In this document: piece by piece, positions 6,487-62,921 of the stretch
How positions within the stretch are numbered: the first letter of the stretch is position 1
Layout: each line of letters opens with the position of its first letter
IMG/VR virus record: IMGVR_UViG_3300017767_005578
Coordinates: 9-64,008 of that record
DNA length: 64,000 bases
Reading direction: 5' to 3' (one strand)
DNA from: a virus
Notes under the pieces: model-generated
Databases searched by the model: none
What the model was told of the DNA's origin: nothing
The model's input: only the letters and a program-made list of their open reading frames with translations
Translations under genes and position numbers: made by a program

Positions 6487-6524
6487 TTTAATAATTTTTT
6501 TTCAATATACGAAAAAATAGTTAT

Positions 6525-6587: not shown

Positions 6588-6594
6588 GCAAACA

Positions 6595-6810: not shown

Positions 6811-6818
6811 GTCCGTTA
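6697..6818 (-). repeat. long-loop attC-like site
   Basis: TAAC-GGACGTG-GCTATGCGTAGTTGC / GCAATTACGTATAGC-TAAT-GTT; 15-bp stem with 2 G-T wobbles, 74-nt loop. Confidence 0.75.
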
Positions 6819-6880
6819 TCTAGATCTTAATGCTAAACAAGCGATTAAGAATTTTAATATTAAGAATCCTATAAAGTAAA

Positions 6881-9419: not shown

Positions 9420-9686
9420 TTAAAGTTCTAATAATTCTGATTCCACTTCCTCCAGATTCCACTTTTCAATTAGCTTGTTTAATCGCTTTTCAAAAGAATT
9501 AAATGTTTTAGAAGTATGAACCATTTCACCATTAAATTCAATGCTAAATCCATTTGCCCATGAATGATTTTGCCTTTGAATTAATGTTGCCATTCTAATA
9601 TCATCATCCCCTGTAATTGCTTGAAAATTTTCATTAGATAATGTTATTACAAATCCCTTTTTTAATCTTGTTTTTAAATTTTCCAT
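9420..9686 (-). CDS. early hypothetical protein (true start likely MENLK; the track's MCD start comes from the repeat motif)
   Basis: A-rich leader aaaacaaacaatc-ATG. Confidence 0.6.
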   Translation of the reverse strand: MENLKTRLKKGFVITLSNENFQAITGDDDIRMATLIQRQNHSWANGFSIEFNGEMVHTSKTFNSFEKRLNKLIEKWNLEEVESELLEL

Positions 9687-9716
9687 GATTGTTTGTTTTT
9701 TAATGTCACACATTTA

Positions 9717-10259
9717 TTATATGGCTCTATAATATATAAAAGCTCTTATCCTATCACATATAGACTGTTCTAGTTCAGAAGCCAGGTCATAAAACTCATG
9801 ACCTAAGTTACCTAAACAACCGTCTGAGAATAAGCTAAAATGATATTGAGGAGTTATGGTTTCGTATAGTCCTTCGTTAATCTTATTTGAAATAATACAC
9901 ACATCTAACCTTTGTCTTATCTCCAATTGTTTTACGCTTTCAGTATCTATTGTTTTATACATTTCAAAACTAACTTTAACGTGGTTTTTTCCTTGTGTAA
10001 ATTCAGCAAATGGAATCCTGTGTTTATTGTCATCTATCCAATCAAAGTCACACCCTTCAATCTCAGCTTCTGTTATTTTAGAATATATTTTACTGATTGT
10101 TTCTCTTAGTATGTCTTCAAACTGGTTAAGAATAGTTTTATTGATCTTGTTAGCGTTTGCTTTTTCTTGTTCAATTTCTGAATGAGTTTTAGAAATTGTT
10201 GTGAAGATGTTGTCACTTGCAACATCCTGTTCTTTAAATTTTAAAATTATTGTTTTCAT
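9717..10259 (-). CDS. early hypothetical protein
   Basis: ORF track; A-rich leader. Confidence 0.6.
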   Translation of the reverse strand: MKTIILKFKEQDVASDNIFTTISKTHSEIEQEKANANKINKTILNQFEDILRETISKIYSKITEAEIEGCDFDWIDDNKHRIPFAEFTQGKNHVKVSFEMYKTIDTESVKQLEIRQRLDVCIISNKINEGLYETITPQYHFSLFSDGCLGNLGHEFYDLASELEQSICDRIRAFIYYRAI

Positions 10260-10723
10260 GATTGTTGTTTTTTAATTGTTTGAATTATATCTCGTTCCAT
10301 TATTTTTAAAACATCATCTACTGTTTTAACTCTAGAGCCATGTAGTTCAAGATAATAGTCTCCAGTGTATGTTGTGTATTTACTGTCTTTAAAATCTCTG
10401 TTATTTTCAGGTATTATTTTAAGATTATAAACATTACCATTAATAACAGCTTCAGCTTTGCTACCCATACACTCGTTTGAGTATTTAATAAACAGGCAAG
10501 GCTCTTTAAATCCGAATATATGTGCAACATTTAATTCTCTGTTTATGCTTTCCACAAAGTCACAAAGAATTTTATTGTAGATTTTTGTTGACTTTTTGTT
10601 GATAGCTTCGGTTATATTAATTTGATTCTGTTCATCATTAGCTGTGTTGATAAAGCTATTTATTAATGAATTTTCTTCTGCGTGGACACTTTCCACTTCT
10701 ACTGTAAAGTTGTAAGTTTTCAT
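10256..10723 (-). CDS. early hypothetical protein (N-terminus similar to that of 9717-10259)
   Basis: ORF track; A-rich leader. Confidence 0.6.
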   Translation of the reverse strand: MKTYNFTVEVESVHAEENSLINSFINTANDEQNQINITEAINKKSTKIYNKILCDFVESINRELNVAHIFGFKEPCLFIKYSNECMGSKAEAVINGNVYNLKIIPENNRDFKDSKYTTYTGDYYLELHGSRVKTVDDVLKIMERDIIQTIKKQQS

Positions 10724-10742
10724 GATTGATTGATTTTAATTG

Positions 10743-11039
10743 TTATCTACTTTTTATGTTGTCAATTTTTGATGTACCAGAGTTGATCATATCAAAAACT
10801 TTATTCCAGTTACTGTCATCAGCTTCCCATTCGATGTCATCTATATCAAATTCTATTTGAAAGTTTCTATAGGAATCTCTATGAGAGTTAAGTTTAAAAT
10901 CACCGTCATCATTTTTCTTGAGGGTAATTTTATGTCTGTTATCACACATACAAGATATAAGGTTAATAACTACTTCTCTTGCATTTTCTTTTACCTCCAG
11001 CTTCGGAGGGTTGTTTAGTAATTCTGTGTATTTGTCCAT
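10743..11039 (-). CDS. early hypothetical protein
   Basis: ORF track; motif and A-rich leader upstream. Confidence 0.6.
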   Translation of the reverse strand: MDKYTELLNNPPKLEVKENAREVVINLISCMCDNRHKITLKKNDDGDFKLNSHRDSYRNFQIEFDIDDIEWEADDSNWNKVFDMINSGTSKIDNIKSR

Positions 11040-11065
11040 GATTGTTTGTTTTTAAGGTCACACAT

Positions 11066-11674
11066 TTAGTAATATTGTTCTCCATCTTCTGTAAATTCAT
11101 ACTCATTAGCTATAATACTCTCCTCTATAGCTTCTCTAGAAGTATAGTACTCGTATCCTTGTTCTAGTGAATCGTATATCTTGTTACATATATCTTCGTA
11201 GTGTTCTCTTATTTCATATAAGATGTCTTCGCAGATGTCTTCTATATTGGAATAGTTTTTATATTGCCAATCGTTAGTAAATTCAGTTTCTAAGTTATCT
11301 GAATAACTTTTTGAATGGTAGTAATGTCCACTTTGTTTGAAGCTACCGTATATGTTTATATCACCGTTTTTAATTAGCTTGATAACTCTGGACCAATTTT
11401 TTTGATATTGCTGGTTGTTATATCCTGGAGTTATGAAGTTTAGTATATCTTCGTTTGGTGATCCTTCAAACATAGCACCGTCACCTTGTGACCAGAATCC
11501 TCTGAAATATATTTTATCAATATCGAATCCTGTTTCATCTTCCTTGTACATTTCGTATACGTGTTCCCACCAATCATAATGTGTATTAATGTCGTGAAAT
11601 TTTTCAATTACTTTTTCTTGTGCTTCTTCACTAAGTTCCTTGAACTTGTAAATTTCAATTGTTTCTTTTCTCAT
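11066..11674 (-). CDS. conserved phage/MGE hypothetical protein (YKFKELSEEAQEK...DWWE...FWSQGDGA family)
   Basis: Family motif recognised; function not established. Confidence 0.6.
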   Translation of the reverse strand: MRKETIEIYKFKELSEEAQEKVIEKFHDINTHYDWWEHVYEMYKEDETGFDIDKIYFRGFWSQGDGAMFEGSPNEDILNFITPGYNNQQYQKNWSRVIKLIKNGDINIYGSFKQSGHYYHSKSYSDNLETEFTNDWQYKNYSNIEDICEDILYEIREHYEDICNKIYDSLEQGYEYYTSREAIEESIIANEYEFTEDGEQYY

Positions 11675-11754
11675 GATATTTATATTTTATCCTCATTAGA
11701 TTAAGTGTGTAACCTTGAGCGAGGATATTACTCAAGGTCACACATTTATTATTA
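11672..11754 (-). promoter_or_regulatory. structured intergenic leader, copy 1 (14-bp hairpin plus possible pseudoknot)
   Basis: TGTGTGACCTTGAG-11nt-CTCAAGGTTACACA; loop ATCCTC is complementary to downstream GAGGAT. Confidence 0.6.
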
Positions 11755-12723
11755 AGCCCAACCCAACTTAGTAGCTAGATTAAGCATTTCACTGTATTCT
11801 ATCTTATGGCATCCTACTACCATATCTCCTGAACTATGTATAAGGTCAACACTATATACACCTATCTCAAAAGTTACACCGTTACGCTTCCATTGTTGTC
11901 CCGTTTCAACAACGTGTTGAACTAGCTTCCAAAGTTTCTTAGCGTTATCCATAGGTACTTCTGCTCTCCTACTGGTTTCAATGGTTTCACTGTCTTTTAC
12001 TCTTAACAAGTACCCTGCTACGTATGGACAGTAGCTTGTTTCGTGGTTTCTCCACTTCTCAATACCTTCTTTTGCTTCAGCTAATTCCCTAGCTTTTTTA
12101 CGCTTTTCAGCTTCTATAGCTTTACGCTTATTTTCTTTTATCTTTTTTATAGCATCTTCAGATAAAAGTATTTCTAAGGGATTGTCAGAATATATTAATT
12201 CTTTTTCTGACTTTTTGAGTTTAGATTTTAGCTTGAATATATTGGTTAAGTTAACAGCGTGTTCTATATGAGAATTTATTTCTCTAGTATAGTCATATTT
12301 TCTAGCTCTTAACTGTTTTTTAGCTAGTTCTTCAACGCTTTTAATGTGTTCACGTACATTGTTAACAAATGTTTCTTTTTCTTTAGAATAATCATTGTCT
12401 CTATGCGTGTAGCCGTAGGGCATTTTATTAACATTTATACGTGTATAGTGACTAGGAATAGCATAACTAACGGCATTCTGTTGTTTTGCTGTTGTGTTAC
12501 TATAAGAGTGATCATACCAAAGGACCAAAGTTCCGTAATCTTTGTTTTTGTGTTCTTCTGGTGTTACTATTCTAGCAATTTCAAAGTGACTACCGTATGA
12601 GTAGATACTTTTATTGTTAAAATAGAAGCTGTTTCCGCTGTTTCTAGCGTGTTCTTGTGATTGATGCGCCCAAAGGTGAGCGATTTCATCTTTGCTTGAA
12701 AATACTTGTTTTATTCGTGCCAT
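11752..12723 (-). CDS. conserved early phage protein (YSYGSHF / YSNTTAKQQ family)
   Basis: Family motifs recognised; function unknown. Confidence 0.6.
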   Translation of the reverse strand: MARIKQVFSSKDEIAHLWAHQSQEHARNSGNSFYFNNKSIYSYGSHFEIARIVTPEEHKNKDYGTLVLWYDHSYSNTTAKQQNAVSYAIPSHYTRINVNKMPYGYTHRDNDYSKEKETFVNNVREHIKSVEELAKKQLRARKYDYTREINSHIEHAVNLTNIFKLKSKLKKSEKELIYSDNPLEILLSEDAIKKIKENKRKAIEAEKRKKARELAEAKEGIEKWRNHETSYCPYVAGYLLRVKDSETIETSRRAEVPMDNAKKLWKLVQHVVETGQQWKRNGVTFEIGVYSVDLIHSSGDMVVGCHKIEYSEMLNLATKLGWA

Positions 12724-12803
12724 AACTTTTATATTTTATCCTCTTAATTTTTTGTGTGTAACCTTAAGTGAGGATGTTACTCAAGGTTGCACATTTATTA
12801 TTA
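12721..12803 (-). promoter_or_regulatory. structured intergenic leader, copy 2
   Basis: TGTGCAACCTTGAG-11nt-CTTAAGGTTACACA, same loop/GAGGAT arrangement as copy 1. Confidence 0.6.
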
Positions 12804-13166
12804 GTAAATTGTTTTAAGATAGTTTCTTAGTTCTCTCATTTCCCATGTAGCATCTTGACCAGCACAATAAGATATTCTAGCATTGCTTTTATTATACTTA
12901 GATAAGAAGAATCTACCCAAAGCCCAATGCTGAGGAGATCTAAACAGTAAACACCGTTCTATTATTTCTTTTGTTCTATGTATACCACCTATTTGCTGTG
13001 TTAACATATCACAAAGCTGTCTTTTAAATTCGTCTGTTAATTGAACTTTGGACCATCCTGTTGTCTTTAGATACATCCTACCGTTTAATAATTCTTGTGC
13101 AGATGTTTGTGAACCTGCTACTTTCCATGCTTTTTCTAAACTGTCAATTTTTGTAATTCGTCCCAT
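12801..13166 (-). CDS. early hypothetical protein
   Basis: ORF track. Confidence 0.6.
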   Translation of the reverse strand: MGRITKIDSLEKAWKVAGSQTSAQELLNGRMYLKTTGWSKVQLTDEFKRQLCDMLTQQIGGIHRTKEIIERCLLFRSPQHWALGRFFLSKYNKSNARISYCAGQDATWEMRELRNYLKTIY

Positions 13167-13228
13167 TGTAATAGAGTTTTATATTATTGGCTCACTTTAT
13201 AGGCTGAGCTAATTACCTTTTTACTAAG

Positions 13229-13441
13229 TTAGTGATTTTCTTTTGTACTGACAATCTTAAATTCACTAAAGTTTGTTTTTATTATTAAATCTGTTCTTTT
13301 TTCTTCTATCCATTTTTGAAACCATGATTGTAGAAATTTAGGTGCAGGTTGCATGTCGCTACCTTGTTCAATATAGAATGTATCGTTTACTTTGTAAATC
13401 GGATTGTTTCTAAGATCTTTGTATACTTCAAAATTTTTCAT
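13229..13441 (-). CDS. early hypothetical protein
   Basis: ORF track. Confidence 0.55.
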   Translation of the reverse strand: MKNFEVYKDLRNNPIYKVNDTFYIEQGSDMQPAPKFLQSWFQKWIEEKRTDLIIKTNFSEFKIVSTKENH

Positions 13442-13448
13442 AATTGAT

Positions 13449-13682
13449 TTAGTTTATTTCTATTATTTCTAATATGTTGTGATCTGTTTCGTGGTCATAT
13501 TCCATTGGGTGAATCTCACTTTCAAAAAATTCATCTTCGTTTGGTGTTCCTAGTTCGCCCATTGTAATTTCGTCACCTGTTTTTACTTTTTTTGCTTCTG
13601 GGTATTTTTTTTCGTCAACATCTACAGAAAAGAATGTTTTGTAGTTTGTTGCGTCCCTGTATCTAAATTCTATTGTTTTCAT
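13449..13682 (-). CDS. early hypothetical protein (true start likely MKTIEF)
   Basis: ORF track; YRDATNYK motif; upstream MCN start comes from the repeat motif. Confidence 0.55.
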   Translation of the reverse strand: MKTIEFRYRDATNYKTFFSVDVDEKKYPEAKKVKTGDEITMGELGTPNEDEFFESEIHPMEYDHETDHNILEIIEIN

Positions 13683-13698
13683 GTTTTCAAATTTAAGG

Positions 13699-13962
13699 TT
13701 ACACATTTACTCTAATTACCATATTAAGAGGTATGTCATATCCATCAGGATCAATAACGGGCTCAGATTCCTTGTATCCTTCTTCATCAGGCTCTGAGTC
13801 TTCGTCTATTACATATTCAATTTCTAGCCATTCACTAATTATTGGGTTATCGCTTCCGTAGCTATCTTTTACTCTTGCCATTGTTCCGCAATCGCTTAAT
13901 TGAATTTCGTATCCTCCCCAATTCGACACTGTGTAGTGTCCATGTGTTATAAAGTCTTCCAT
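13699..13962 (-). CDS. early hypothetical acidic protein (SNWGGYEI family)
   Basis: ORF track. Confidence 0.55.
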   Translation of the reverse strand: MEDFITHGHYTVSNWGGYEIQLSDCGTMARVKDSYGSDNPIISEWLEIEYVIDEDSEPDEEGYKESEPVIDPDGYDIPLNMVIRVNV

Positions 13963-13973
13963 TTTGTTTGTTT

Positions 13974-14225
13974 TTAGTTAGTAAATATTTTTAATAGTTT
14001 TTTGTAGTGTTTTTTAGCGTCTGTCAGGTTTTCGTATGTTTCCCATATCTTACAGTCGTTTCTAGTTATTAGAATTTTTTTGTCGTTTCTAAATGCCTGG
14101 ACATGATAAACGCCATGTTCACGATACATAGTTATTTTAGTTGTTTTTGTTTGGATGTTTTCTATGTATCCGCACATAAAACCGTATTCGCTAGTAAATC
14201 CGTCTTTGTTTTTGATCTTTTTCAT
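13974..14225 (-). CDS. early hypothetical protein (SEYGFMCGY motif)
   Basis: ORF track. Confidence 0.55.
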   Translation of the reverse strand: MKKIKNKDGFTSEYGFMCGYIENIQTKTTKITMYREHGVYHVQAFRNDKKILITRNDCKIWETYENLTDAKKHYKKLLKIFTN

Positions 14226-14236
14226 GGTTCTTTTTT

Positions 14237-14461
14237 TTAGTTGTTATACATATAAGGTTTTCCTATTAAATCACCGTTTTTGTCTATTTCTATAATTCCT
14301 TTGTCTGTTGATACTTCAAACGTGCTACTAATAGGGTTTAAAGATACCCAAGGATTTAAAGAAATTTCTATTTCTGTGACTGCTTCAGCTAATGGTGTTT
14401 TTAGCCCTGATATAGACAAATTTATTAATTGGTCTAATATTTTTTGTTCTATTTCGTTCAT
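14237..14461 (-). CDS. early hypothetical protein (true start likely MNEIEQK)
   Basis: The upstream part of the tracked ORF overlaps the lipoprotein ORF in another frame. Confidence 0.5.
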   Translation of the reverse strand: MNEIEQKILDQLINLSISGLKTPLAEAVTEIEISLNPWVSLNPISSTFEVSTDKGIIEIDKNGDLIGKPYMYNN

Positions 14462-14483
14462 GGTTCTTGTTTTTAAATTGTGT

Positions 14484-14612
14484 TTATTCATAAGCGGAAC
14501 AGTGCTTGTAATTATCCCAAATTTTAAAATGAGTTTTTTCTGAACTTGCACAGCTTGTTAAAATTAAAATTAGTGTTATAATGGCTATTGGTTTAAAAAT
14601 TGTTTGTTTCAT
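14484..14612 (-). CDS. 42-aa lipoprotein, absent from ORF track
   Basis: MKQTIFKPIAIITLILILTS-CASSEK...: basic N-terminus, hydrophobic core, LTSC lipobox; A-rich leader. Confidence 0.65.
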   Translation of the reverse strand: MKQTIFKPIAIITLILILTSCASSEKTHFKIWDNYKHCSAYE

Positions 14613-14624
14613 TTTTGTTTGTTT

Positions 14625-14780
14625 TTAAAGTTCAAATGTTTTGTAAATTCCTGTATTGAAAGGAAGCCAGATATAAAAAGTTTTATCTTTTTTGTTGTTA
14701 AAAATAGTTACCGCAAAAACTGTTTTTTGCTTCATTTTTTTTGTTATGCCCGTATGCATGAAGATTCTGATCTTTTTCAT
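14625..14780 (-). CDS. early hypothetical protein (true start likely MKKIRIF)
   Basis: ORF track; A-rich leader. Confidence 0.45.
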   Translation of the reverse strand: MKKIRIFMHTGITKKMKQKTVFAVTIFNNKKDKTFYIWLPFNTGIYKTFEL

Positions 14781-15488
14781 TTTGTTTGTTTTATTTTGTG
14801 CGACATTGCACATTTATAATAGAAACCCTCTAAAGATTTGAACTTTACTAAAGACACAATATAAAATTTGTCTAAGGGTTTTAGCTTTTTTATTTATCAC
14901 CGCTTGCAAGCTGTTAAACAATACGATTGCAATTTTTAGTTGATTGCTAACTATATAAAGGCAAGGTGACACATTTAATATATGCCACCTTGCAAGTATA
15001 CCATATAAGAATACAGTATATAACATGTAGATCTTTTTTATCTTACATTTATTGATTCATTTGTTTACACTTTCGGTTTGTTCCGAACTGTTTTTTTAAA
15101 CTGTAGTAACTGAAGACTACGTGTAAAAATTCAATTTAGCTTTTTACTTGCTAGTTGTAAATAGGCTTTTTTATCGCATAGCAACTAAACTATGAGTTTA
15201 CAACATAGGTTATATTTCAAACCGCCTTAATACTAGGTTTTTTAATTGCGCTACTAATTAAAAAACTTTTTTTAATATCAATACTTCAAAGAAAATTCAA
15301 ATCCGTTTAAAAGTGTTAACACGTCAATTCAACACTACCCAATTAAGGGCTAATTATCCCGCTATAATTTAAACGCTTTAAAATGAACGAATAATATAGT
15401 TTTAGTTTAAAAGCCCCTTTGCTACGTCAAAGCACTATATTTTAAAAGGGGTACACGTTTTTAAAAGGAACGTGCAAACCGTTATTAA

Positions 15489-15887
15489 TTAGCCTAGTTT
15501 CTCGTTTAACGTCTCAAAATCTTGAGTAGTAAATTGTTTTATTTGGTATCTCGATGCCTCAATACAGATTGAAACGTTATTTTTGAAACGTGTTCTACCT
15601 TTTTTGTTCCATTGCAATTTGCATTTTTGTTGTAATTGCGTGAAGGCTAGGCCAGTATTTAATATTGTTTCGTGTTCGTTTTCGTCGTTAACGTTTTCAA
15701 CACGTACTAAAACAGGTAAAGAGAAATTAAACAATTTTGCATTTGAGTTTTTAAAAAAACTTAACATTTCATAGAAATTGCCTACTAAAGTGTTAACGTT
15801 TGTTTCGTCCGTTAATTCATAGGTTAAATTATTCGTTAAATCAACCGTTTGATTTTTGTCTAATTGGTAAAAAGTTACTTTTTTCAT
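15489..15887 (-). CDS. hypothetical protein, first gene of the leftward early block
   Basis: ORF track. Confidence 0.55.
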   Translation of the reverse strand: MKKVTFYQLDKNQTVDLTNNLTYELTDETNVNTLVGNFYEMLSFFKNSNAKLFNFSLPVLVRVENVNDENEHETILNTGLAFTQLQQKCKLQWNKKGRTRFKNNVSICIEASRYQIKQFTTQDFETLNEKLG

Positions 15888-16430
15888 TTTAATAAAGTTT
15901 AAATTGTGGTTAACCTTAAAACGGTGTTAACCTTAACCGTCTGAGACAAAGTACGTTTAAATTATTCGTTAAATCAAATTTTAAGACTAAAAAAATTAAA
16001 CTTTTTTTTCAATTATCTTGTAACTCATTGATTATCAACTAAATAAATTTTATTAATAGTATTGTACAACACCAGGAAAATTAAAAAAAAAGGGCCTCAA
16101 GGTGACACAATTACAAAAAAGAAACAATAAGAATAATACTACTATAATAGAGAAGACATACAGGAACTATGAAAAAAAATTGTGTGTATTTAGTTTTGAT
16201 CTCTCAAGGTGGGGAAATAAAAAAAAGTATCTGATGTATTAAACAAACGATTTAAACAGATACAAAATTTTTTAAAACTATATACGCTTTGAATTTTTCC
16301 CCAAACAGAAACAAAAACAAAGTTTTCTCAACCGTTCGATAGGGTAAACACAAGGTATTGAACGGCAAATAGTTAAGGCCATAAGACTAAAAACAAAAAC
16401 AGTTAATTGTGACGGGAGGAAACGAAAAAC

Positions 16431-16513
16431 GCGCCCACCCCCCAAAAGTTTTGCGCCTCCCCCAGGAACGATCACCCCCGACGCACACCCCTATAACCCC
16501 ACTCCTTTAACCC
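16431..16513 (-). other. C-run cluster (G-tracts on minus strand) at the transcription divergence point; candidate pac/terminus/origin
   Basis: Seven runs of 3-6 C in about 80 nt of an AT-rich genome; strand skew flips here. Confidence 0.5.
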
Positions 16514-16762: not shown

Positions 16763-17056
16763 ATGGCATATAAGGGATATAAGAAAGAACCAGAGCGAAG
16801 GAAGAAGTATGATCCTTTGTATTTGGATTGGTTGGACAGGTATCGTCAGTTGCGTTGTTTACGGAATGTAAGCAGGAAGTATATGGCGAGGGAGTTGGGT
16901 TTAACGGACAGGACTTATTATAAGAAGGAGGTTTGTATATCCAGTTTTACTTTTTATGAGTTGGTAAAGGCTTTTCGTATTTTGGGTTATGATTTGCGAG
17001 TTGTGGTTGATGATGTTTTCAGTCATGACAAGAGGGGAAGGCGAATAGATTATTAG
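16763..17056 (+). CDS. XRE/Cro-like HTH transcriptional regulator
   Basis: LRCLRNVSRKYMARELGLTDRTYYKKE...FTFYELVKAFRILG HTH_3 pattern. Confidence 0.7.
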   Translation: MAYKGYKKEPERRKKYDPLYLDWLDRYRQLRCLRNVSRKYMARELGLTDRTYYKKEVCISSFTFYELVKAFRILGYDLRVVVDDVFSHDKRGRRIDY

Positions 17057-18084: not shown

Positions 18085-18120
18085 AAATGTTTATATTGGT
18101 CTAGGGTTTATTGATTGATT

Positions 18121-18159
18121 GGGGGGGGTGTTTCTTGTTTGTCGCTCCCCTTTTTTTTT
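18121..18159 (+). terminator. intrinsic terminator
   Basis: G-rich/C-rich stem followed by T9. Confidence 0.55.
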
Positions 18160-18191
18160 GTTGTAGGTATCACATTTAGGGTAAAAAATAA

Positions 18192-30484: not shown

Positions 30485-32349
30485 TGTCAGTTAGTTCAGA
30501 ATTATCAAAATTAGGTTCAGGAGTAGGTAGGATTTATCTTACAGACTCCAGTGGAACATTAACAGGCTTAGAGTTCTTTAATGACAAGATAGGAAGAGAG
30601 GCTGCCGAGAAAGCTATGGTTGTTTCAGCTACTTTAAGCTCTAATATCTCAGCAACTTCAAGTGTAACTATAACTTCAGCAGGTGGTACTATTACAAATT
30701 TATCATACAATGGAGTTTCTGTTTTTAATACAGCTTCTCCTATAACAGGAGGGACAACAACAGAGTTGGCAACTGCTCTGGCTTTGGCTATAAACGCAAA
30801 TGTAAGCACCCCTTCTTACACCGCTATTTCAGCAGGAAGTGATGTAATTATTTATTTAGACCCAGACAACGGAAGTTCATTAAATGGTACGGTAGCTGCT
30901 TTTGCTACAACAGGAACAGCAGCAATGACTGCTACAAATTTAGATGGAGGTGCTTATCCTACAGAACTTGTTGATGCTCAGATAGGTTATAGAGTTTACA
31001 TAAATAACTCCCTTACAGCTCCATCAGCTAGTTTAGTTGGAGCAACAGATATAACTACAGGTGTTTTAAGAAAGGCTGCTAGTTCTCCTTATTCTGTAAA
31101 AGATGTTCAAATATCTTCTGGAGCTTTATCTATAGATAGAGACGGAGCTTTTACTATTGTAAGTGTGCAGACTGAAGGTGCAACAGCATCGGATGATTTA
31201 ACATCCATAAATGCAGGTATATTTAATGACGGAGACGTAGTTGTATTAAGGGGTAAAGAATCAGGAAAGGTTACAACGGTAAAAGAAGGTGGTAATATAG
31301 AGTTAGCCAATAATGCTGATTTTCTTACAGCTACCAAAGATTACGCAATAATACTTCAGTATAGCACTTCAGATAACAAGTGGTATGAAATATCTAGAAG
31401 CCCAGGAAACAACTTATCGGTTGCCTCATTGAGGTCTGCTAGTATTGCAGCTCCTGTACAGGGTGTTCAAGCAACAACGCTAACCACAGGAGGAGGTTCT
31501 GTTACTGTTCAGCCAGGTGTTGATAAAGGACACATAGTCCTTACAGGAACAGGAACATTAACGGGTTCTTGGAGTTATAATTTAGGTGGAACTCCTATAG
31601 ATGGTGACACATTTATTGTTGACTACAAAGGAACATTTACACCAAGCGGAAACAATGTAACTATATTTGGGGTTTCCTTAACGGATTCTCAAATAGCAGG
31701 AGAAAAGGTTACCGTAAAAGCCACGTATATTTTATCTTCTACATCATGGTCTGTTGTTACTGTTAGGGACACAGCAGGAGTAGATTTAGTAGATACAACA
31801 GATTTAGCAACAAAAGAAACAGGGTTAGGTAATCCTGCTGCGAATGGATATATTCTTTCTTCCACTACTGGTGGAGTTAGATCTTGGGTTCCAAGTGCGA
31901 CAGACATAGCGTATGACTCAGATTATACCACTACTGGAAACTCAGCAGGGGTTGTAACAACTTTAAGAAGTGTGTCTTTACCAGGAAACACCCTGTCTTC
32001 TGATGGGAGTTGTATAGTTTTTAAGTTTACAGGGCAGTTTGGTTCAAACGCTGGAGCTAAAACTTTTAAAGTTGTTTTTGCAGGGACAGATGTTTTGCAA
32101 AACTTGAACAGCACATCACCTAATGGTTCTGATTTTACAGGAGAGGTTGTAGTTGTAAGGTCTGGGTCTACTGTTGCAAAAGTAAGCGGTAGTCTTCAGA
32201 TAAATGGACTTCCTAATGAGGTTAATTTTTCTCAAGTAACTTCACTAAACTTTACAACAACTTCTTATAATTTAGATATAACAGGAACAGGTGCAGTTAG
32301 TAGTGACGTAAATATTTACACCACTATTGCTACTAAAATTATATTTTAA
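30484..32349 (+). CDS. tail fibre/hub-like structural protein
   Basis: T/G/S-rich; TEG..ASDDL..I..G...GD.V.LR motif; shares a domain with 18524-19546. Confidence 0.55.
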   Translation: MSVSSELSKLGSGVGRIYLTDSSGTLTGLEFFNDKIGREAAEKAMVVSATLSSNISATSSVTITSAGGTITNLSYNGVSVFNTASPITGGTTTELATALALAINANVSTPSYTAISAGSDVIIYLDPDNGSSLNGTVAAFATTGTAAMTATNLDGGAYPTELVDAQIGYRVYINNSLTAPSASLVGATDITTGVLRKAASSPYSVKDVQISSGALSIDRDGAFTIVSVQTEGATASDDLTSINAGIFNDGDVVVLRGKESGKVTTVKEGGNIELANNADFLTATKDYAIILQYSTSDNKWYEISRSPGNNLSVASLRSASIAAPVQGVQATTLTTGGGSVTVQPGVDKGHIVLTGTGTLTGSWSYNLGGTPIDGDTFIVDYKGTFTPSGNNVTIFGVSLTDSQIAGEKVTVKATYILSSTSWSVVTVRDTAGVDLVDTTDLATKETGLGNPAANGYILSSTTGGVRSWVPSATDIAYDSDYTTTGNSAGVVTTLRSVSLPGNTLSSDGSCIVFKFTGQFGSNAGAKTFKVVFAGTDVLQNLNSTSPNGSDFTGEVVVVRSGSTVAKVSGSLQINGLPNEVNFSQVTSLNFTTTSYNLDITGTGAVSSDVNIYTTIATKIIF

Positions 32350-34450: not shown

Positions 34451-37400
34451 ATGGGTTACGAGAAAAGACAGTTTTTATACGGTATGGATTTAGATACCGA
34501 AGAGAGGTTAATAGAGCCTGGTTTTTCACGAAAGAATGTTAATGTACGAATAGGTTCTTCTACTGATAACGGTGTTTATTCTGCTGAAAATATTCAAGGT
34601 AACACATTTATACCAAATACAGAACTACCTTCAGGAACTAATAAGGTTATAGGCTCATGCTGGGATAAGCTAAGAGACTTAAGTTATTACTTTGTATATA
34701 ACTCAGAGGGTAATCATGGTATATTCGAGTACAACCATGTAGAGAGTAAGATAGACAAGGTTATGATTGCAAGTGTTTTAAACTTTCAATCTGAAGAATT
34801 AATAACAGGTCATAATGTTGTAGAGTTTGATGAAAGCAACCACTTGCTTTACTTTACTGATGGATTTAACCCTCCTCGTAAAATAAACATACAAAAGGCA
34901 AAGGCAGGCTCTTACATAGAGCCAATAAAAGAAGAGGTGATAGATGCTATTAAGTATCCTCCTTTAAAGCCGCCAACTTTTAAGTTTGAATTAGACGAAA
35001 ATCAGCTTGTTAATCATTTAACAGATAAAATAGTTCAATTCAAAGCGGCTTATGTTTATGATGATCAAGAAGAAAGTGCTTATTCACCTATATCTATTCA
35101 GGCTATTCCTGGTGATAATAATGTTATCGAGGTTACTATACCTAAAGGAGGAGAGCTTGTAAAAAGAGTTATAGTCGCTTTTAGGGTTGGCAATATAGGA
35201 GATTTTTTGGAGGCAGAGGATAAAGATGCTTCTGATTATGATACAGACGCAGACGGGAATTATTTGTATAAATTCAAAAATGAAAAAAACTACAATAATA
35301 TTTCTTTACCTAGGTCCAATAAACTTTTTGATTCTCTTCCTCAGTTAGCACAAGCACAAGAGTACATAGAGGGAAATAGACTAGCTTATGGAAACATAAC
35401 AGAAGGTTATGATAATGTAGATGTGAATTTAGATTTAGAAGTAGATTATGAACCTGAGTTTTCAACTAGCGAAAATACAATAAAGGGTTTTTTAAGGATT
35501 TCAAATGCGAGACAACCTTCGAATAAAGCTTACAGCAGGTATCAACCTATAACTAGGACTGGAGACTCCTCTACTTATGCTTTTGGAGGTTTCGGAAAAA
35601 ACACCACAGTACCTAATACAGGTTTAAGGTCAAGCTATCAGCAGCAAATTCCTTTAGGTGGTTTTGTTATATATCTAGCAGGAACAGACTATTATTGTGT
35701 TTCTACTCAGATTCCAGAGGGAGGCTCAGGTTCAAGTTCGGCTGCTCCTCTTCAAGACGGAAGAGGTGTATATCTTGCTACAAGTACAAACCAAAATAAT
35801 AGAATTAGAAATGCTATAGAAGGACCAAGTGGGGGTAATACACCTTACCCAGAATCAAGGGTTTTTTCAACGTGGGAGATGAATAACGTTCCAGATGGAA
35901 CATATATAATGAGGGTAGCTTCTCATTGGACTACGGAGGCAGATTTGCAAGACCCAGAAAGGAGTTATCAAAAAACATCTACTTTTTTAAATAGAATAGG
36001 TTTTGGTGTCATTGATATTCCAACAGGCGAAGTTCAACAACCTGTTAAAGAGTTACAAGTAACTGTTTCTAACGGTCAAATATTAGATAATATAGAGGTT
36101 ATTATAGCAGATTTGTCCGACACTGTTATTTTTGCAGGTAATCTACCTTTTAATAACGCAGGTTATGTTTGTGATTTCGTGCAAGATGATTACACTCAGT
36201 TTGTCAACCCTGCTTCTGTGGCAGAAGCTTTGGGTCAAAAAAGAATAGAGTTGTGCTTAGTGAATTATACTGGTCCTGACGGTTCATTTTCTAATTTTAC
36301 TGACCACAATGGGTTCTTTTTTAGTTCGCCAAAAGACTCTACTTCTATTCAAAAAATAACTTCAGGCGTAGAACAATATTCTTTCAACACTGATGCGTAT
36401 AATTTGTTAGACACTTCTACAAATCCAACAGCTTCGTTTCCTAGTAATCAAACACCTGGATCTACTAAGTTTTGGGTGTTGCCAAATAAAAATACAGGCT
36501 TAACTAAAAAATCAAGAACGAAGTTTACGGTTATAGTTAAGGATGCTTTAGGTATTCCCCAAAGTGATGTTAGTATCGTCAGTAGTCAGGGAGATGTTCA
36601 GGAAACAAATACAAATGGAGAAGCGCCATTTATCGCTTACTCTCCTGGAAACTCAGTCGGTTTCCTTTTTGAAAGAACTCTTAATTTTATTCCTACTTTA
36701 AATTATGGTGTTATTGGGAATTACAACCCTGTTCTTTTAACGGATACAGTAACTATAGGGAGTGTTGGTAATCAAAATGATGACACTAAAGACCTTGAGG
36801 ATATAATCTTAACTATTCAAACAACCTCAGACGCTTCTAAGTTGAAAAATGGCGGTGTTTATAGTTTTGGTATAGTTTATTACGACAGGGCAAATAGAAG
36901 TGGAACTACAAATTTTGGTTACAACTTAGATTTACCTTTTTACGATACTCAGATAACAACAGCTCCTGTAGTTGGCTGGGAAATCACAAACGCAGCTCCT
37001 AGTTGGGCTACTCATTATCAGATTGTTAGGACGTTAAATACAGAACTAAGTAAATACATTCAATGGTTTACCTCAGATGTTTCTTATTCTGTTGGTGGAA
37101 CTAACTTTAATGACGCTTCAATTATAGATTTTGATATTACTAATTTAACTGATGAGTATAAGACAACTAATCCAGATTCTGTTTTAGTTTATGATTTTAC
37201 CACAGGAGATAGAATGCGTCTTATTAAAGACGCTAATAATAATTACTACGAAGATTATATAGATTTAAAGGTTGTTTCTTTTGAGGCTGGTATATTAAAG
37301 GTTAAAAACGACATTCAAGATAAAGATTTGACTGGCGGTGCTTTTTTTGAGATATACACTCCAAAGCTTGATGTGGACCAAGAAATATATTATGAAATAG

Positions 37401-38974
37401 GAGAGTGTTACGATGTCTTAAAAGCTGTTGACCCTGTAAGTGGTGACACAATTAGTTACCACCAAGGTCGTACTCAAGACCAAGACCCATTTAACTTGTT
37501 GGATGGAGCTAAGGGTATATTTACAGGAGGTGATACTTATTATAGAACAAGAAACATAACAACTGCTCCTAGTGGTTTTTATAAAACAAATATAGATAGT
37601 CAGTTAGTTTCTGATTTTTTCCAATCTAAAGTATCAGATATAGGAAGACCTAACATTGTTGATAAAGATGCTCAAAGAGTAAACAGGATAACATCTATTT
37701 ATTATTCTGATAGATTCATACCAGAAACAAATATAAACGGCTTAAACAGCTTCTTTGATACGGCATTTGAAACTTATGACAGAAAGTATGGCTCTATCCA
37801 AAAGTTATTTTCTCAGGATAAGCGTTTAGACTGTTACCAAGAAACAAAAACAGGAAAGATATTAGTAGAGGAGAATGTTATTTTTGACCAATTTGACCAA
37901 GGTACTGTCGCTTCTTCAGCAAAAGTTTTATCAAAAATAATATATTACAGCGGTGACTATGGTACTTTAAATCCAGAAAGCTTTGTAGAAAACGAGGGTA
38001 GAAGATATTGGTTTGATGTTAGAAACGGTAAGGTATTAAGGTTGTCTAATGATGGTATTACTCCTTTATCTGACAAAAAAATGCACGCTTATTTTGAGAG
38101 CAAGAGTAATTTCTACTCAGCTTTTAATTTAATGCCTGAAGTTTGGGGTGTTTTTGATGAGAACTTTGATGAGTATATAATCGCTTTTGGAAGTGTAAGT
38201 AGAGAAGAAGGGTTTACTCCTGATGAACTAGCTTTAGTTTCCTCACAAGCAGATCAGATTACAGAAACTAGGGATGGTCTCACATTTACCTTTGACATCT
38301 TATATACAGCTAACGAACAGGGAGTACCCACAGAGTTTGAGGTTGTAAGAGATTTATCTAACGGAACTTTTATTATAAACAGTGTTGCAGGAGATATATC
38401 TCTGGACAGACAAAGGCTTTTAACAATACCTGCTGAAACATTGGCTTTTTCTGAAAAGACAGGTCATTGGACATCTTTCTATTCTTACGCTCCTGAGTGT
38501 ATGGTTAGAATAGGTATTGATTTCTTAAGCTTTAGAAATGGTCAAGCATATTTGCACAACACCTCTGGAGCGAAAAGAAATAGCTTTTACGGAGAAGAAA
38601 GAGGTAGTGAGGTTTGGGCGGTATTTAATCAAAACCCAAGTAATGTAAAAGTATTCCAAGCGTTAAGCGAGGAGTCTGATTCTGTGTGGCAGGTTAGGGA
38701 TATATTTACTCAAGGAGGTCAGAGAAGTAATTTAACTAAAGACGATTTCTCTGTAGCTTATGGTCAAGGTCACACACTTTATAGTAAAGAAAACATCCAT
38801 TACGCACCTATATGGAAAGACGAGAACACACCTAATGTAGAAAACCCATTAATAGAAGGAGACTCTATGAGAGATGTGAGCATATTGTTTAAGTTAATTA
38901 ACGATTCAACTAATGAAGAGAGGTTGTTTGCGGTTAGCATGAACTACTCACTTTCGGAGCGAAGTAATAGATAA
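34451..38974 (+). CDS. tail stabilisation/muzzle protein (P22 gp10-like / crAss muzzle)
   Basis: 1507 aa; beta-propeller-like N-term (LYFTDGFNPPRKINI, AQAQEYIEGNRLAYGN), C-term YGTLNPES, WTSFYSY.PE. Confidence 0.7.
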   Translation: MGYEKRQFLYGMDLDTEERLIEPGFSRKNVNVRIGSSTDNGVYSAENIQGNTFIPNTELPSGTNKVIGSCWDKLRDLSYYFVYNSEGNHGIFEYNHVESKIDKVMIASVLNFQSEELITGHNVVEFDESNHLLYFTDGFNPPRKINIQKAKAGSYIEPIKEEVIDAIKYPPLKPPTFKFELDENQLVNHLTDKIVQFKAAYVYDDQEESAYSPISIQAIPGDNNVIEVTIPKGGELVKRVIVAFRVGNIGDFLEAEDKDASDYDTDADGNYLYKFKNEKNYNNISLPRSNKLFDSLPQLAQAQEYIEGNRLAYGNITEGYDNVDVNLDLEVDYEPEFSTSENTIKGFLRISNARQPSNKAYSRYQPITRTGDSSTYAFGGFGKNTTVPNTGLRSSYQQQIPLGGFVIYLAGTDYYCVSTQIPEGGSGSSSAAPLQDGRGVYLATSTNQNNRIRNAIEGPSGGNTPYPESRVFSTWEMNNVPDGTYIMRVASHWTTEADLQDPERSYQKTSTFLNRIGFGVIDIPTGEVQQPVKELQVTVSNGQILDNIEVIIADLSDTVIFAGNLPFNNAGYVCDFVQDDYTQFVNPASVAEALGQKRIELCLVNYTGPDGSFSNFTDHNGFFFSSPKDSTSIQKITSGVEQYSFNTDAYNLLDTSTNPTASFPSNQTPGSTKFWVLPNKNTGLTKKSRTKFTVIVKDALGIPQSDVSIVSSQGDVQETNTNGEAPFIAYSPGNSVGFLFERTLNFIPTLNYGVIGNYNPVLLTDTVTIGSVGNQNDDTKDLEDIILTIQTTSDASKLKNGGVYSFGIVYYDRANRSGTTNFGYNLDLPFYDTQITTAPVVGWEITNAAPSWATHYQIVRTLNTELSKYIQWFTSDVSYSVGGTNFNDASIIDFDITNLTDEYKTTNPDSVLVYDFTTGDRMRLIKDANNNYYEDYIDLKVVSFEAGILKVKNDIQDKDLTGGAFFEIYTPKLDVDQEIYYEIGECYDVLKAVDPVSGDTISYHQGRTQDQDPFNLLDGAKGIFTGGDTYYRTRNITTAPSGFYKTNIDSQLVSDFFQSKVSDIGRPNIVDKDAQRVNRITSIYYSDRFIPETNINGLNSFFDTAFETYDRKYGSIQKLFSQDKRLDCYQETKTGKILVEENVIFDQFDQGTVASSAKVLSKIIYYSGDYGTLNPESFVENEGRRYWFDVRNGKVLRLSNDGITPLSDKKMHAYFESKSNFYSAFNLMPEVWGVFDENFDEYIIAFGSVSREEGFTPDELALVSSQADQITETRDGLTFTFDILYTANEQGVPTEFEVVRDLSNGTFIINSVAGDISLDRQRLLTIPAETLAFSEKTGHWTSFYSYAPECMVRIGIDFLSFRNGQAYLHNTSGAKRNSFYGEERGSEVWAVFNQNPSNVKVFQALSEESDSVWQVRDIFTQGGQRSNLTKDDFSVAYGQGHTLYSKENIHYAPIWKDENTPNVENPLIEGDSMRDVSILFKLINDSTNEERLFAVSMNYSLSERSNR

Positions 38975-44500: not shown

Positions 44501-47500
44501 AAGACTCTGCTCCAGTTGGTGCAAAAATAAATAAAGTTTTTGAAGTTAGAGTTGATAAAAACAATCCCAATAAAGCAGCTGCTACTGTAGAATTTATATC
44601 AGAAGATGGAAAAATTTTTAGAGGTGAAGTAAAGTTAAAGCAAACACAACAAGCTACAACTGATACAACTACTGAAGAGGTTGTTGAGGAAGGTGACACA
44701 TTTACTCAAGAAGAATTAGACCAAGAGATAACCAAAGATAACTTACAATCAACAATAGATAAAATAGACTCTTTACAGAAAAAGATAAGAAGTACTACAA
44801 AATCTGATCTAGGTTTTTCTGCTGCTTTGGATGCTGTTCTTACTCTTACAAAAGCAGCTTTAAAAACAACTAAAACTTTTAGAGATGCTTACAATATTGC
44901 TGTCTCTAAATTTAGAGACCAAGACGGTTATAAAAAACTAACTGATGAGCAAAAAAACAAATTAGATTCTTTTTCTGAAAAAGAATTTAAAGACGCTTTA
45001 AAAGAAGAGTCAGAGAAAGCAGTTGAGCGAGGTGGCACATTTAATAAAGCAAAAGAAGCGTATAAGAAGGCTGGGGAATCAGGTTTAGATACAAAAGAAT
45101 CAATTTCAGAATCTTTTAAAACAGTAGAAAGAGCAGACTGGTATAAGTCTTTAAGCAAAGAAGACCAACAAGAAATAAAGGCAGACTATGTAAATAGGCT
45201 TGTTCCGAACTTTGAATCAGAGGGTAAGCCTCCTAAAAAGAACAGAAAAGGAATACCTAAGCTTGATGAGTCTAAAAAGATTATAACCACCGAAAAGCAA
45301 CAGTTAAAAAAGAGATTAATAGAGCAGAGAAAAGGTGCTAACAACTTAAGAAAATCACAACAAAAAATGATTGATGATTTGTTTGAGTCTATAGAAACCA
45401 ATTCAAAAAGCTTAACGAAAGCACAGCTAAAAGCAGCCTTAAAAAGAGCAGCAAAAGCAGACCCTGCTAAGATTAATGATTTCTTAGAATTAAGAGATAG
45501 CATAAACAAACAACTAAAAAAAGGAGAGCTAAAAGAAAAGAAAGCTGAGGCAAAAAGAATACAGTCAAGATTAAAAAGAAAAGCTAAAAAAACTACAGGT
45601 TTTAGAAAGTCTTTAGCGTTGGATTTATCCAGGTTAAACATAAACAGAGTAGATGACATAGACGCTTTCCTAGATGCTGCTAATGGACTTATTAAGTCTT
45701 TAGATGGTAAGGCTAGTATGAAAGATGTTAAAGATCAAACACAAGACATAATAGCTAAAGCATTAGATGCAGAAACTAAGTTTAGAGAAAAAAAACAAGA
45801 ACTTATTGAAGAAGCTTTAAAAGAAGAGTATGATGCAGCAAACCTTAGCATGTCTTTTGAAGAGTATAGAAAATTAAAAGAAGAGCAATCTAAACAGGAT
45901 GCCAAAGATAAAAAGTTAGAAGCAGCAGCCGAAGCTAGAGAGGATATGGTTAATTGGCTTAACTCTAGAATTGATAAGTTAAGAACTGATTTTAATGACC
46001 TAACAGACGGAATGACTGAGAGGCAAAAGGCAATCGTAAAAGATTTAATTAATGCTAAAAATCTTCTTAATAAAAAAGACGGTAAGGGAGAATACTTGTT
46101 ATTGGATAGTGAGTCTTTAATGGATTTGCATTCTGCAATAGATGAGGTTTTCACTTTTAATTCAACAGCAGGTGTTAATAAAATTGCAACAGCTTTAAAG
46201 TCAATTAAAAAAGCAGAAACATTTAGGATTAAGCTAAACAATATGATTGATGCTGGATTATTTACTAAAGGAATATTTGGTAAAAACACAGGTAACTTAT
46301 CAGCTTATGCTAAAGCAGCTACAATATCAGAAAGGGCTGCTAAAGATTTTGCATCTATTCTTTTTGGAGAATATAACAAAAGCTGGAATAAAACTCAAGA
46401 AGAAACAGAAGCATTCCTAAAAAGAAGAGCAAAAAAAAGAGATGAGCTAAAGATAAAAGAAAGACAGTCTAATAAAATTGGCGTTATATCTTGGTTAACA
46501 CAAGAAGATGAAGGATTGACTGTCGAGGAGTCTAACAAAAACTTAAAAGAGAAAATTGAATCTTTAAAGAATCAGATAAAAAAATTAAAAGAAGTTGGTA
46601 GAACAAAAGGTAAGAGTTATAGGATAACTAAAAGAGCAGAAACAAGAAAGGCTGAATTATTAGAAAAAATAGTAAAAGACTTAAATTTAGATAGTATAGA
46701 AACTAAGGTAGACCCTGTAACAGGAGAAAGTAATTTAGAAAATCTTTTAACACCTAACGAAAAGGAGTTTTTAAACTTTTTAAAAGACGAATTTGAGCAG
46801 TTGAAAGAGCCTTTAGCAGAATCTTATCTAAACGCTAAGGGGGAAGAAATTACTTTTGTAAAAAACTACCTACCTACTTTTGCTAAAAAATTAGGTGCAA
46901 AATCTGATGTAGAACTTGATAGTGATTTTTCATCTACAGGTATGTCGGCAGATCCTTCTGGTAGAACTATTCAAAGAACAGAAGTAGATACAACAGGAAA
47001 CACTTCTTATAATTTTGATGTGTTAGGAACTACAGAAGCTGGTTATGGTCAAATATCAAATGACATTAATTCGCTTTTTGAAAAACAAGTTTTAATTAAT
47101 GTTGTTAAATCTAAGCCTGTAAAAAAACTATATATACAAGAAGGTCAAGATCTAGCTGACCAGTATAATGTTTTACAAGAAAGGGTTAAAACATTAATTA
47201 ATAAGAGAAACCCCAACTTCGCAAGAGATATTGGTCTTGCTAACGAGTATTATAGATTTGCTGAAAATGCTGTTAGAAACACTATTGCTCTACCTCTAAG
47301 GAATACTTTTCAGTTAGCTAAACAGTTAGCTCCTATTGTTTTAAATACCGCAATAAAGAACCCTGTATTTTTTGCTCAAGGGTTTACTTTAACAACTCTT
47401 TCAATGGGGAAAAACAGACAGTTTGTTGATGCTTTGTTAAAAAAAGCGTCAAATACATCTTTAAGGGTTTTGGAAGGAGACGAGAGTTTAGCAAAAACAA

Positions 47501-62770: not shown

Positions 62771-62921
62771 ATTTGTTCATGTTTCCAAGATTGGGTTTAC
62801 TTATTTTTTTTATCATAAATGTGTCACATTTAGGACACTTAACTTTTGTTTTATAAGACTGTACTAGCTTGTCTTTAACTTCGGTTTTGCAATTTTCGCA
62901 AATGTAATCGAATATAGGCAT
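62754..62921 (-). CDS. FmdB-like zinc-ribbon protein (55 aa), absent from ORF track
   Basis: MPIFDYICENC...VKCPKC pattern. Confidence 0.65.
   Translation of the reverse strand: MPIFDYICENCKTEVKDKLVQSYKTKVKCPKCDTFMIKKISKPNLGNMNKYGSSY

Follow-up and report, generated by a model that had tools for sequence, protein, structure and literature searches.

Why does one short word of DNA recur between the small genes of a phage, and what reads it? The question is raised by a stretch of 64,000 nucleotides (the window), which is nearly the whole of the 64,031 bp IMG/VR virus record IMGVR_UViG_3300017767_005578. Copies of a 15 nt motif, TAAATGTGYNACMTT, are found between the small genes at 16.1–9.4 kb, which we infer to be early genes from the gene layout. 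An earlier inspection of the sequence (the original prediction) had taken the motif for an early promoter or operator, or for a modular junction which promotes gene shuffling. We find that the motif is real, that it is conserved in a clade of phages and that it is under selection even within coding sequence. The best reading is still, tentatively, that it may form the core of an early promoter or operator cassette, similar to the promoter early stem-loops (PeSLs) of T4-type phages, with a reader other than plain host sigma-A.

Small early genes of other phages are also known to have repeated motifs at their junctions; PeSLs, stoperators and start-associated sequences (SAS) are examples. Unusual features here are the copies embedded in the codons of late genes, the departure from the host promoter and the stops in two frames which the junction copies provide.

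The motif at gene junctions

With at most one mismatch, the motif has 15 matches in the window, about 60-fold more than the 0.25 expected; none of 100 shuffles reaches 15. The top over-represented 9-mers of the genome are TAAATGTGT (11 occurrences, 0.54 expected) and TGTGTCACC (6 occurrences, 0.18 expected). Eight co-oriented copies had been predicted. Six of them are exact (9702, 11054, 11734, 12783, 13695 and 14963) and the one at 16099, the head copy, has a single mismatch; all are on the minus strand, which is also the direction of the open reading frames (ORFs) running from 16100 to 9400. The copy at 14802 shares only TAAATGTG with the others. This half copy folds as a small hairpin, TGTGC-N6-GCACA (14797–14812). 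A tRNA-like minihelix precedes it by 4–6 nt, and an ATG follows at about 22 nt. Table 1 gives the positions of these copies and of other features.

Related phages were reached by DNA pattern scans of IMG/VR and by protein database look-ups; the related contigs come from marine metagenomes, and none of the sequencing runs recorded as RNA includes this stretch. Motif arrays with 7–15 copies each are found in G001, G002, G003, G004, L009 and L036, all of them uncultured marine phages. G001 (62 kb) is 92% identical to the window in the aligned parts, and it shares the stem of the 14802 hairpin with a different loop. In these relatives the TAAAT part of the motif varies (TAATCGTG, TAAACGTG, CAAATGTG), while GTGYNACMTT is constant. 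The head copy keeps its position in G001, G002 and G003, despite diverged neighbouring sequence, and the copy of 14963 type likewise stays in place where its flanks differ. L010, an otherwise different phage, has one exact copy, before a homologue of the 323 aa gene. L011, whose homologue of the 323 aa protein is 54% identical, has no copy at all; a single-protein scan of IMG/VR with the 323 aa protein of the window gave no close relatives. A different word, TTACACTCA, is present 13 times in L011 (3357–19755): It is strand-polar, found on one strand only and mostly within genes of both orientations.

There is no near DNA match in the phage GenBank collection and no prophage relative in 185,579 species genomes. 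The motif followed by an A-run gives only four chance matches in bacterial genomes, in unrelated bacteria, and a literature search on the motif words found nothing relevant.

The junction copies fall in different classes. In class A (9702, 11054 and 13695), an A-rich leader comes directly after the motif, and the ATG is found at 12–15 nt. In class B (11734 and 12783), a 13–15 bp hairpin has the motif as its 5' arm and is followed by a GAGGAT box and the ATG. The inverted pairs noticed before (11706–11744, 12754–12793 and 14961–14993) do fold as hairpins of 13–15 bp. Their free energies are –23.9 kcal/mol in the 11734 cassette (z –6.5), –15.2 kcal/mol for 12754–12797 (z –3.3) and –21.6 kcal/mol for the 14 bp hairpin at 14961–14993 (z –4.9), whose partner is kept in four relatives with different flanks. 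Stem-loops are absent from the class A copies and from the head copy.

A spacing of 15–30 nt before the next start had been proposed, and about half of the copies agree with it. The distance from motif end to ATG is about 60 nt in the two class B cassettes and 184–212 nt for the copies at 14963 and 16099. Since these last two copies are far from any start codon, the motif is more than a translation signal. The ATG within the motif does explain, as suggested, the false starts with MCD or MCN: ORFs 9420..9713, 13449..13706 and 14625..14813 begin at it. We also observe that the 13695 copy is abutted by a canonical TAAATTTG box (13682–13709, minus strand), kept in G001, only 5 nt before the ATG at 13682; such a box would yield a leaderless message.

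A characteristic feature of the junction copies is the purine (A or G) at position 10. All 17 non-redundant copies which follow a gene have it, which results in TAA or TGA in a second frame, in addition to the TAA at motif positions 1–3. On the other hand, the 17 other copies have C in 11 cases and a purine in only 4. Of 34 copies, 14 have a further TAA immediately 5' of the motif. A near-palindrome, AAKGTG-T-CACMTT, is formed by the copies in which position 10 is C (the head copy, the 14963 type and the embedded copies); five of its six positions pair around position 9.

Table 1. Motif copies and other features of the window. Position 1 is the first nucleotide of the window; aa, amino acids.
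Feature	Position	Strand	Remarks
Head copy, TAATTGTGTCACCTT	16099..16113	-	One mismatch; divergent non-coding region upstream of the whole early block; followed by CCC-T9
Hairpin with motif 14963–14977 as 3' arm	14961..14993	-	Upstream partner AAGGTGGCATAT; T-rich tail, terminator-like
tRNA-like minihelix	14817–14881	-	7 bp acceptor-like stem, internal stem-loop, canonical T arm (GTTCAAATC / GGTTCGATCC); also in G001, G002, G003
Half copy	14802..14816	-	First eight bases of the motif, then divergent tail CAATGTC; three mismatches
Class A copy	13695..13709	-	TAA (positions 9–11) is the stop of ORF 13699..13962; ATG 12 nt downstream
Class B cassette	12721..12803	-	Double stop, motif 12783–12797, 13 bp hairpin with inverted partner, GAGGAT box, ATG of 323 aa gene
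Class B cassette	11672..11754	-	Motif 11734–11748, inverted partner 11702–11716, GAGGAT box, ATG of 202 aa gene
Class A copy	11054..11068	-	TAA is the stop of the 202 aa gene; A-rich leader, ATG 14 nt downstream
Class A copy	9702..9716	-	ACATT tail, perfect AATGT-N3-ACATT dyad; ATG 15 nt downstream
Embedded antisense copy	31601..31615	-	In 621 aa late gene; codons GGT GAC ACA TTT (GDTF)
Embedded antisense copy	34596..34610	-	145 nt into muzzle-protein gene; GNTF; kept in L022, L029
Embedded antisense copy	44690..44704	-	In 2351 aa gene; GDTF
Embedded antisense copy	45029..45043	-	In 2351 aa gene; GGTF; rare GGC codon used
Weaker embedded copy	38766..38780	-	Core GTGTGACCTT only; similar one at 51332–51346
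Perfect 17 bp palindrome, TAAATGTGTCACATTTA	62816..62832		Inside 55 aa zinc-ribbon ORF 62754–62921, peptide CPKCDTF
Regions with late host-type –7 boxes	18085–18191, 22100–22138, 28593–28684, 48640–48688	+	

Copies embedded in late genes

The late module has no clear intergenic copy, in agreement with the original prediction. Nevertheless, four intragenic antisense copies are present. All four are in one common reading frame, which codes for x-G-[D/N/G]-T-F-x, and several lines of evidence show selection on them. The late proteins contain five xG[DNG]TFx peptides altogether, and four of these are encoded by exactly GGT-(G/A)AC or GGC-ACA-TTT; codon usage alone predicts the motif codons at 0.01–0.06 per peptide. 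The four GDT[F/I] peptides are all encoded by GGT GAC ACA. When synonymous codons are shuffled, 0.68 embedded copies are expected, and none of 500 shuffles reaches the four observed; when the order of codons is shuffled, 0.087 are expected, and none of 1500 shuffles reaches four. Among relatives, only 2 of 60 columns are variable in the embedded motif, as compared with 88 of 443 in the flanking coding sequence (p = 4e-4). Clearly, the embedded copies are held by codon choice and purifying selection, and they must therefore act as DNA or as antisense RNA. A regulatory word overlaid on coding sequence can rarely be demonstrated by sequence analysis alone.

The orientation of the embedded copies says little. 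Codon usage alone gives an antisense bias of about 2.4-fold. In L026, a more distant phage, embedded copies are found on the plus strand, in minus-strand replication genes, where they code for G-D-T-F and G-R-T-F. Embedded copies are therefore antisense to the gene in which they lie, without genome-wide polarity. The palindrome at 62816 precedes the replication block, at about 45 nt from its first gene, and it is conserved in G004, G001 and L026.

A candidate early promoter or operator cassette

The proposed cassette would have, in this order, one or more stop codons, the motif, an optional stem-loop, an A-rich leader and the ATG. The motif may open separate early or delayed-early units on the minus strand, at the head of the block and before the tRNA-like RNA, about half of the early ORFans and the replication block. 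If TAAATGTG is placed like a flavobacterial sigma-A box (–12 to –5), the predicted start falls on motif position 13, with leaders of about 7–35 nt. Hairpins which include the motif may attenuate or stabilise read-through RNA, like those of T4-type PeSLs. The embedded antisense copies may yield early "anti-late" RNAs, or they may bind the same factor. Recombination would move genes along with their control site, because the copies are near-identical direct repeats. Several placements favour a promoter: at the head of the early block, where copies are conserved in four relatives, immediately 5' of the A-rich leader in many early ORFs, and before the replication block. A promoter is also favoured by the single exact copy of L010, which arrived with the 323 aa gene, and by the enrichment of the motif, the selection on its embedded copies and the lack of a good sigma-A promoter in the early block, apart from a weak candidate at its head. 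We infer that transcription starts at the motif, and its reader is probably not plain host sigma-A.

PeSLs contain a stop, a motif, a variable stem-loop, a leader and a start; the stem-loop ends transcription which arrives from upstream, and it may overlap with the promoter (PMC2839356). Our cassettes have the same succession of elements and, like PeSLs, they are repeated in a plastic early region, before ORFans (PMC2839356, PMC4122927). Recombination between PeSL copies gives insertions, deletions and swaps; here we find individual cases (L009 and L010), without enrichment at motif junctions. On the other hand, the core of a PeSL is a host sigma-70 promoter with demonstrated activity, while our motif, known only as sequence, does not agree with the host (Bacteroidota) consensus. 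Moreover, a stem-loop is lacking in about half of the copies, selection also acts on copies inside late genes, and the phage is not T4-like. The intergenic repeats of halovirus HF2 are a further parallel (PMC8707807). These repeats of 29 and 58 bp are proposed promoters which have been reporter-tested; like our motif, they are short, found between genes and conserved within a virus lineage. They differ in the archaeal host and its promoter type and in their greater length, and the abstract of that work mentions no embedded copies.

The likeness to the –7 element of Bacteroidota promoters is weaker than originally claimed. In these promoters a –33 element, TTTG, is usually found 17–23 nt upstream of the –7 element, TAnnTTTG (PMC9723704). 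In Flavobacterium psychrophilum TAnnTTTG is placed at –12 to –5, and the mapped promoters which we compared keep the TTT (PMC9723704). TAAATGTG agrees with TAnnTTTG at five of six fixed positions, and the predicted leader length fits flavobacterial 5' untranslated regions, with a median of 24 nt (PMC9723704).

Several facts weigh against a promoter. In TAAATGTG the middle T of the TTT is replaced by G (TGT), a deviation from the sigma-A box, and the TAAAT part of the motif varies among relatives. No conserved –33 element is found upstream of the motif copies. Conservation peaks at GTGYNACMTT, downstream of the box, and not in the AT-rich part. As a sigma-A promoter of Bacteroidota the motif thus fails, both in its box and in the missing –33 element. 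A near-canonical but weak host-type candidate, TTTG-N21-TAGTTTTA, is found at about 16303–16273 on the minus strand; it is partly conserved and could drive the whole block. A degenerate copy at 18164 would fire directly into a terminator. The near-palindrome of the C-type copies suits a dimeric DNA-binding protein. The search for a polymerase or a sigma factor, described below, counts on the same side. A sigma-54 or extracytoplasmic function (ECF) type reading of the motif was rejected, as a second element is lacking.

Unlike the early genes, late genes have proper –7 boxes: TATATTTA before 18192, 28685 and 48689, and TACATTTG before 22139, all on the plus strand. Two of these boxes follow terminator hairpins, one of which (18100–18150) shows compensatory changes among relatives. 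The late genes therefore look host-transcribed. A full TTG-N-TAnnTTTG is also found at 5007–5035. Within the early block there is no good sigma-A promoter, save the weak candidate at its head; the block looks devoid of convincing host promoters.

If the motif does start transcription, it would be a handle on early control in marine Bacteroidota phages, and a portable expression cassette.

Search for a reader

The phage belongs to an uncultured marine, crAss-related lineage of podovirus type. Its structural genes, which include terminase and portal, are on the plus strand at 16.8–56.2 kb. In this block, a 1507 aa protein contains the Crassvirus muzzle domain PF25731, and the terminase is about 31% identical to terminases of Flavobacterium ("elemo") and Cellulophaga phages. 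Minus-strand genes extend from about 16.1 kb down past the start of the window, and continue from 64 kb to 56.2 kb. The block at 16.1–9.4 kb consists of small ORFans, whose PHROG matches are all of unknown function; methylases, a serine recombinase and replication genes are found downstream of it. Between the two ends of the window (63999/1), G001 has about 2.9 kb more (10494–13427), including a single degenerate copy of the motif. Either the window record is permuted and a little short of complete, or it does not have this insert.

We have not found a phage RNA polymerase: DFDxD is absent from every ORF longer than 150 aa. Among the ORFs scanned there was no sigma factor, and Pfam scans revealed neither kind of protein. 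The 2351 aa gene (41584–48639, plus strand) has a position syntenic with the virion RNA polymerase gene of crAss-like phages. Its product has neither DFDxD nor a T7-like motif B or C, and no match in PDB, PHROG or Pfam. Language-model features liken it to polyvalent proteins (LPD38/LPD3/MuF_C), which also speaks against a promoter with its own polymerase. There are 15 homologues of 2000–3100 aa, and the conserved parts are residues 430–760 and 1700–2100 (ENYxPT, SGRTKxR). An AlphaFold model of the C-terminal 662 aa, built with the 15 homologues, has a predicted local distance difference test score (pLDDT) of 49.8, too poor for a fold comparison. We have rejected this protein as a virion RNA polymerase on these grounds, although such a poor model leaves a hidden polymerase possible.

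In phi14:2, which has a virion RNA polymerase (gp66), early transcripts have no common motif (bioRxiv 10.1101/2020.03.07.982082). Our phage resembles N4 and the crAss-like phages with a virion polymerase in having host-type promoters on late genes and lacking them on early genes. It also has a crAss-related structural module, including the muzzle, and a giant gene of virion type in the place of the polymerase gene. On the other hand, DFDxD and other polymerase motifs are missing from its giant protein, and most motif copies cannot form a hairpin of the N4 type. We know of no early promoter motif in crAss-like phages. The situation is unusual: The motif does not resemble a host promoter, and yet neither a polymerase nor a sigma factor of the phage is evident, in a lineage whose relatives use a virion polymerase for their early genes.

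An extended version of the promoter reading may be proposed, which we regard as unlikely in all its parts together. The motif would be a start signal unread by host sigma-A, in a crAss-related lineage which lost the virion polymerase with DFDxD; its reader would be a virion-delivered or first-early factor, and the late-gene copies would be written in codons for early antisense ("anti-late") RNAs. If a start signal not read by sigma-A is indeed present, what the early transcription of crAss-like phages recognises becomes directly testable.

Alternative roles of the motif

Among the alternatives, an operator without promoter function survives best, and we consider it possible, if somewhat unlikely, and nearly as probable as the promoter cassette. 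The motif would be the site of a phage-encoded, probably dimeric regulator among the ORFans. Host RNA polymerase would transcribe the block from its head, where a promoter candidate exists, and the regulator, once bound, would stop or modulate elongation at the junctions, as an early shut-off similar to stoperators; the embedded copies would be extra sites. A dimeric regulator would fit the near-palindromic motif, the perfect palindrome at 62816 and the inverted pairs, which have three different geometries. Most junction copies have the dyad broken at position 10, and at least 17 of them share one orientation relative to the genes, which is not expected of an operator. The unlikeness to the host –7 box and the confinement of the motif to this phage lineage, with only four chance matches in bacteria, also agree with an operator. 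Orientation may not matter for the embedded copies, given their small codon bias and the fact that relatives such as L026 have them in either absolute orientation. Nevertheless, roadblocks within late genes would impede late transcription, and one copy is found directly before a small-RNA gene.

The regulator itself is a difficulty for the operator. A binding protein was not found among the phage ORFs scanned, although a small DNA-binding protein is easier to overlook than a polymerase. The only hints are the 55 aa zinc-ribbon gene and an XRE-like helix-turn-helix gene at 16763–17056, a weak match (E = 0.002) below the cut-off. A repressor of prophage type is doubtful, because neither an integrase of the usual size nor a lysogeny module was found, only a 231 aa serine recombinase. 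If the motif is an operator, it points to a phage regulator with about 15–20 sites.

Stoperators are reportedly found in temperate phages, the Cluster A mycobacteriophages, where they are bound by the immunity repressor (L5 gp71, Bxb1 gp69). They are said to be asymmetric multicopy sites of 13–15 bp, placed in short intergenic gaps, often over stop or start codons, and in a fixed orientation, all of which recalls our motif. The phage differs from them in that no repressor or lysogeny module was found, and in that its late copies are intragenic and antisense, so the copies do not share a single orientation. Another comparison is the SAS and extended SAS (ESAS) of Cluster K mycobacteriophages, reportedly described by Pope in 2011: 13 nt sequences just upstream of start codons, which are said to include the ribosome-binding site. 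They too are said to be oriented motifs before many starts, some of them with flanking inverted repeats. In our phage the A-rich leader is not part of the motif, and two of the copies have no start codon nearby.

An RNA-level signal for processing, stability or attenuation in a polycistronic early transcript is improbable. Parallels are the RNase III sites in the early region of T7 and a RegB-like shut-off site, and the hairpin versions would be the full form of the signal. The strong hairpins are in favour. Where their arms differ, the sense strand mostly has G-U wobbles (6 against 2), and one series of copies leads from G-C by way of G-U to A-U. ATCCTC in the loop and GAGGAT farther downstream occur together, and both are missing in L010. 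The near absence of sense-oriented motifs from late and replication genes also fits. Nevertheless, the nine class B hairpin copies differ too little to test covariation properly, and folding is impossible for class A copies, which lack a partner. A sequence-specific RNA signal of 15 nt would still need a reader. Finally, the selection on antisense embedded copies is unexplained, unless antisense RNA or RNA–RNA pairing is involved.

The motif might also be mainly a recombination joint or a self-spreading repeat, of the repetitive extragenic palindromic (REP), miniature inverted-repeat transposable element (MITE) or cassette-site type, without a role in expression. We find this very improbable, although recombination at the junctions does occur. 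L009 has a 1.07 kb insertion with four genes between two class B cassettes, where the window has one cassette. L010 has a chimeric joint, with the left flank of the 11054 junction and the right flank of the 12783 junction, and the crossover is within the motif. Homology blocks end inside the 13695 and 11054 copies, and the latter is a recombination joint in both L009 and L010. The stops in two frames provided by the junction copies, with a purine at position 10 in all 17, would suit a joint. Contigs from other metagenomes break at 9699, 11037, 12755 and 13701; this is partly an assembly effect of the repeats. A sponge-metagenome contig, X7, lacks exactly the 155 aa gene at 10256–10723 (stretch 10251–10716), which was deleted across 13 nt of identity in two leaders. 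The A-rich leader plus ATGAAAAC therefore also serves as a recombination joint.

The distribution of block ends does not single out the motif. In five relatives, 18 of 45 block ends are within 30 nt of a motif copy (8.6% expected), but 35 of 45 are within 30 nt of a start codon (14.5% expected). Motif junctions are 7 of 16 junctions and have 18 of the 35 junction breaks, so they are not favoured over junctions without motif. The A-rich leader shared by junctions and the selection for intact genes explain the breaks as well as the motif does; recombinants survive only if their genes are intact, which biases breaks toward junctions. The embedded copies, selected at the codon level, and the head copy have no role as cassettes. 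The modular junction of the original prediction thus keeps its architecture, its insertion in L009 and its chimeric joint in L010, and loses the preference of breaks for the motif: Gene shuffling at the junctions is real, but probably a by-product. The motif is also a site family distinct from the attC-like sites at 489–6587. An integron attC site, or a cluster of attC sites lacking integron-integrase (CALIN), was rejected: Class A copies have no second arm, and the sequences are unlike those of the sites at 489–1323 and 6525–6884.

The least probable role, for which we see hardly any chance, is a strand-polar DNA signal apart from transcription (Chi-like, a nick site as in T5 and phiKMV, priming or an aid to DNA entry): 12 of the 15 window copies are on one strand across modules of opposite gene direction, but the replication module of L026 has four copies on the plus strand and one on the minus strand and relatives have a conserved plus-strand copy in gene 126–473, so polarity follows the resident gene and not the genome, while the placement at stop codons and leaders is very precise and 15 nt is long for a Chi or primase site.

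tRNA-like minihelix and conserved non-coding regions

The minihelix at 14817–14881 lies between two motif copies. The copy of 14963 type is upstream of it, by 10–20 nt in G001 and G003 or by about 85 nt in the window and G002, and the next copy begins 4–6 nt past it. Its acceptor and T stems have compensatory changes which set G003 apart from the other genomes. ARAGORN and Rfam scans of the early region called nothing, the minihelix included. It could be a processed small RNA, a punctuation mark for RNase P/Z or a tRNA mimic. A motif before the minihelix is the layout of a small-RNA gene behind its own promoter; in F. psychrophilum, a tRNA-Cys gene is listed with a 12 nt leader (PMC9723704).

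Two other non-coding stretches are highly conserved. A G-rich block at 16420–16505 (GTGGGGTTATAG..CGCAAAACTTTTGGGGGGTGGG) is near-invariant in four relatives, with flanks which are only 70–85% identical. No other non-coding part of the divergent region is as well conserved, and the block may be an origin, a packaging site or a structured RNA. The other is the non-coding region of about 200 nt between the head copy and the first early gene (15890–16095, minus strand). It contains a palindrome, TTGATAATCAA, a related sequence, CAAGATAATTG, and an A8/T7 tract, and it may be a leader, an operator or a small-RNA region.

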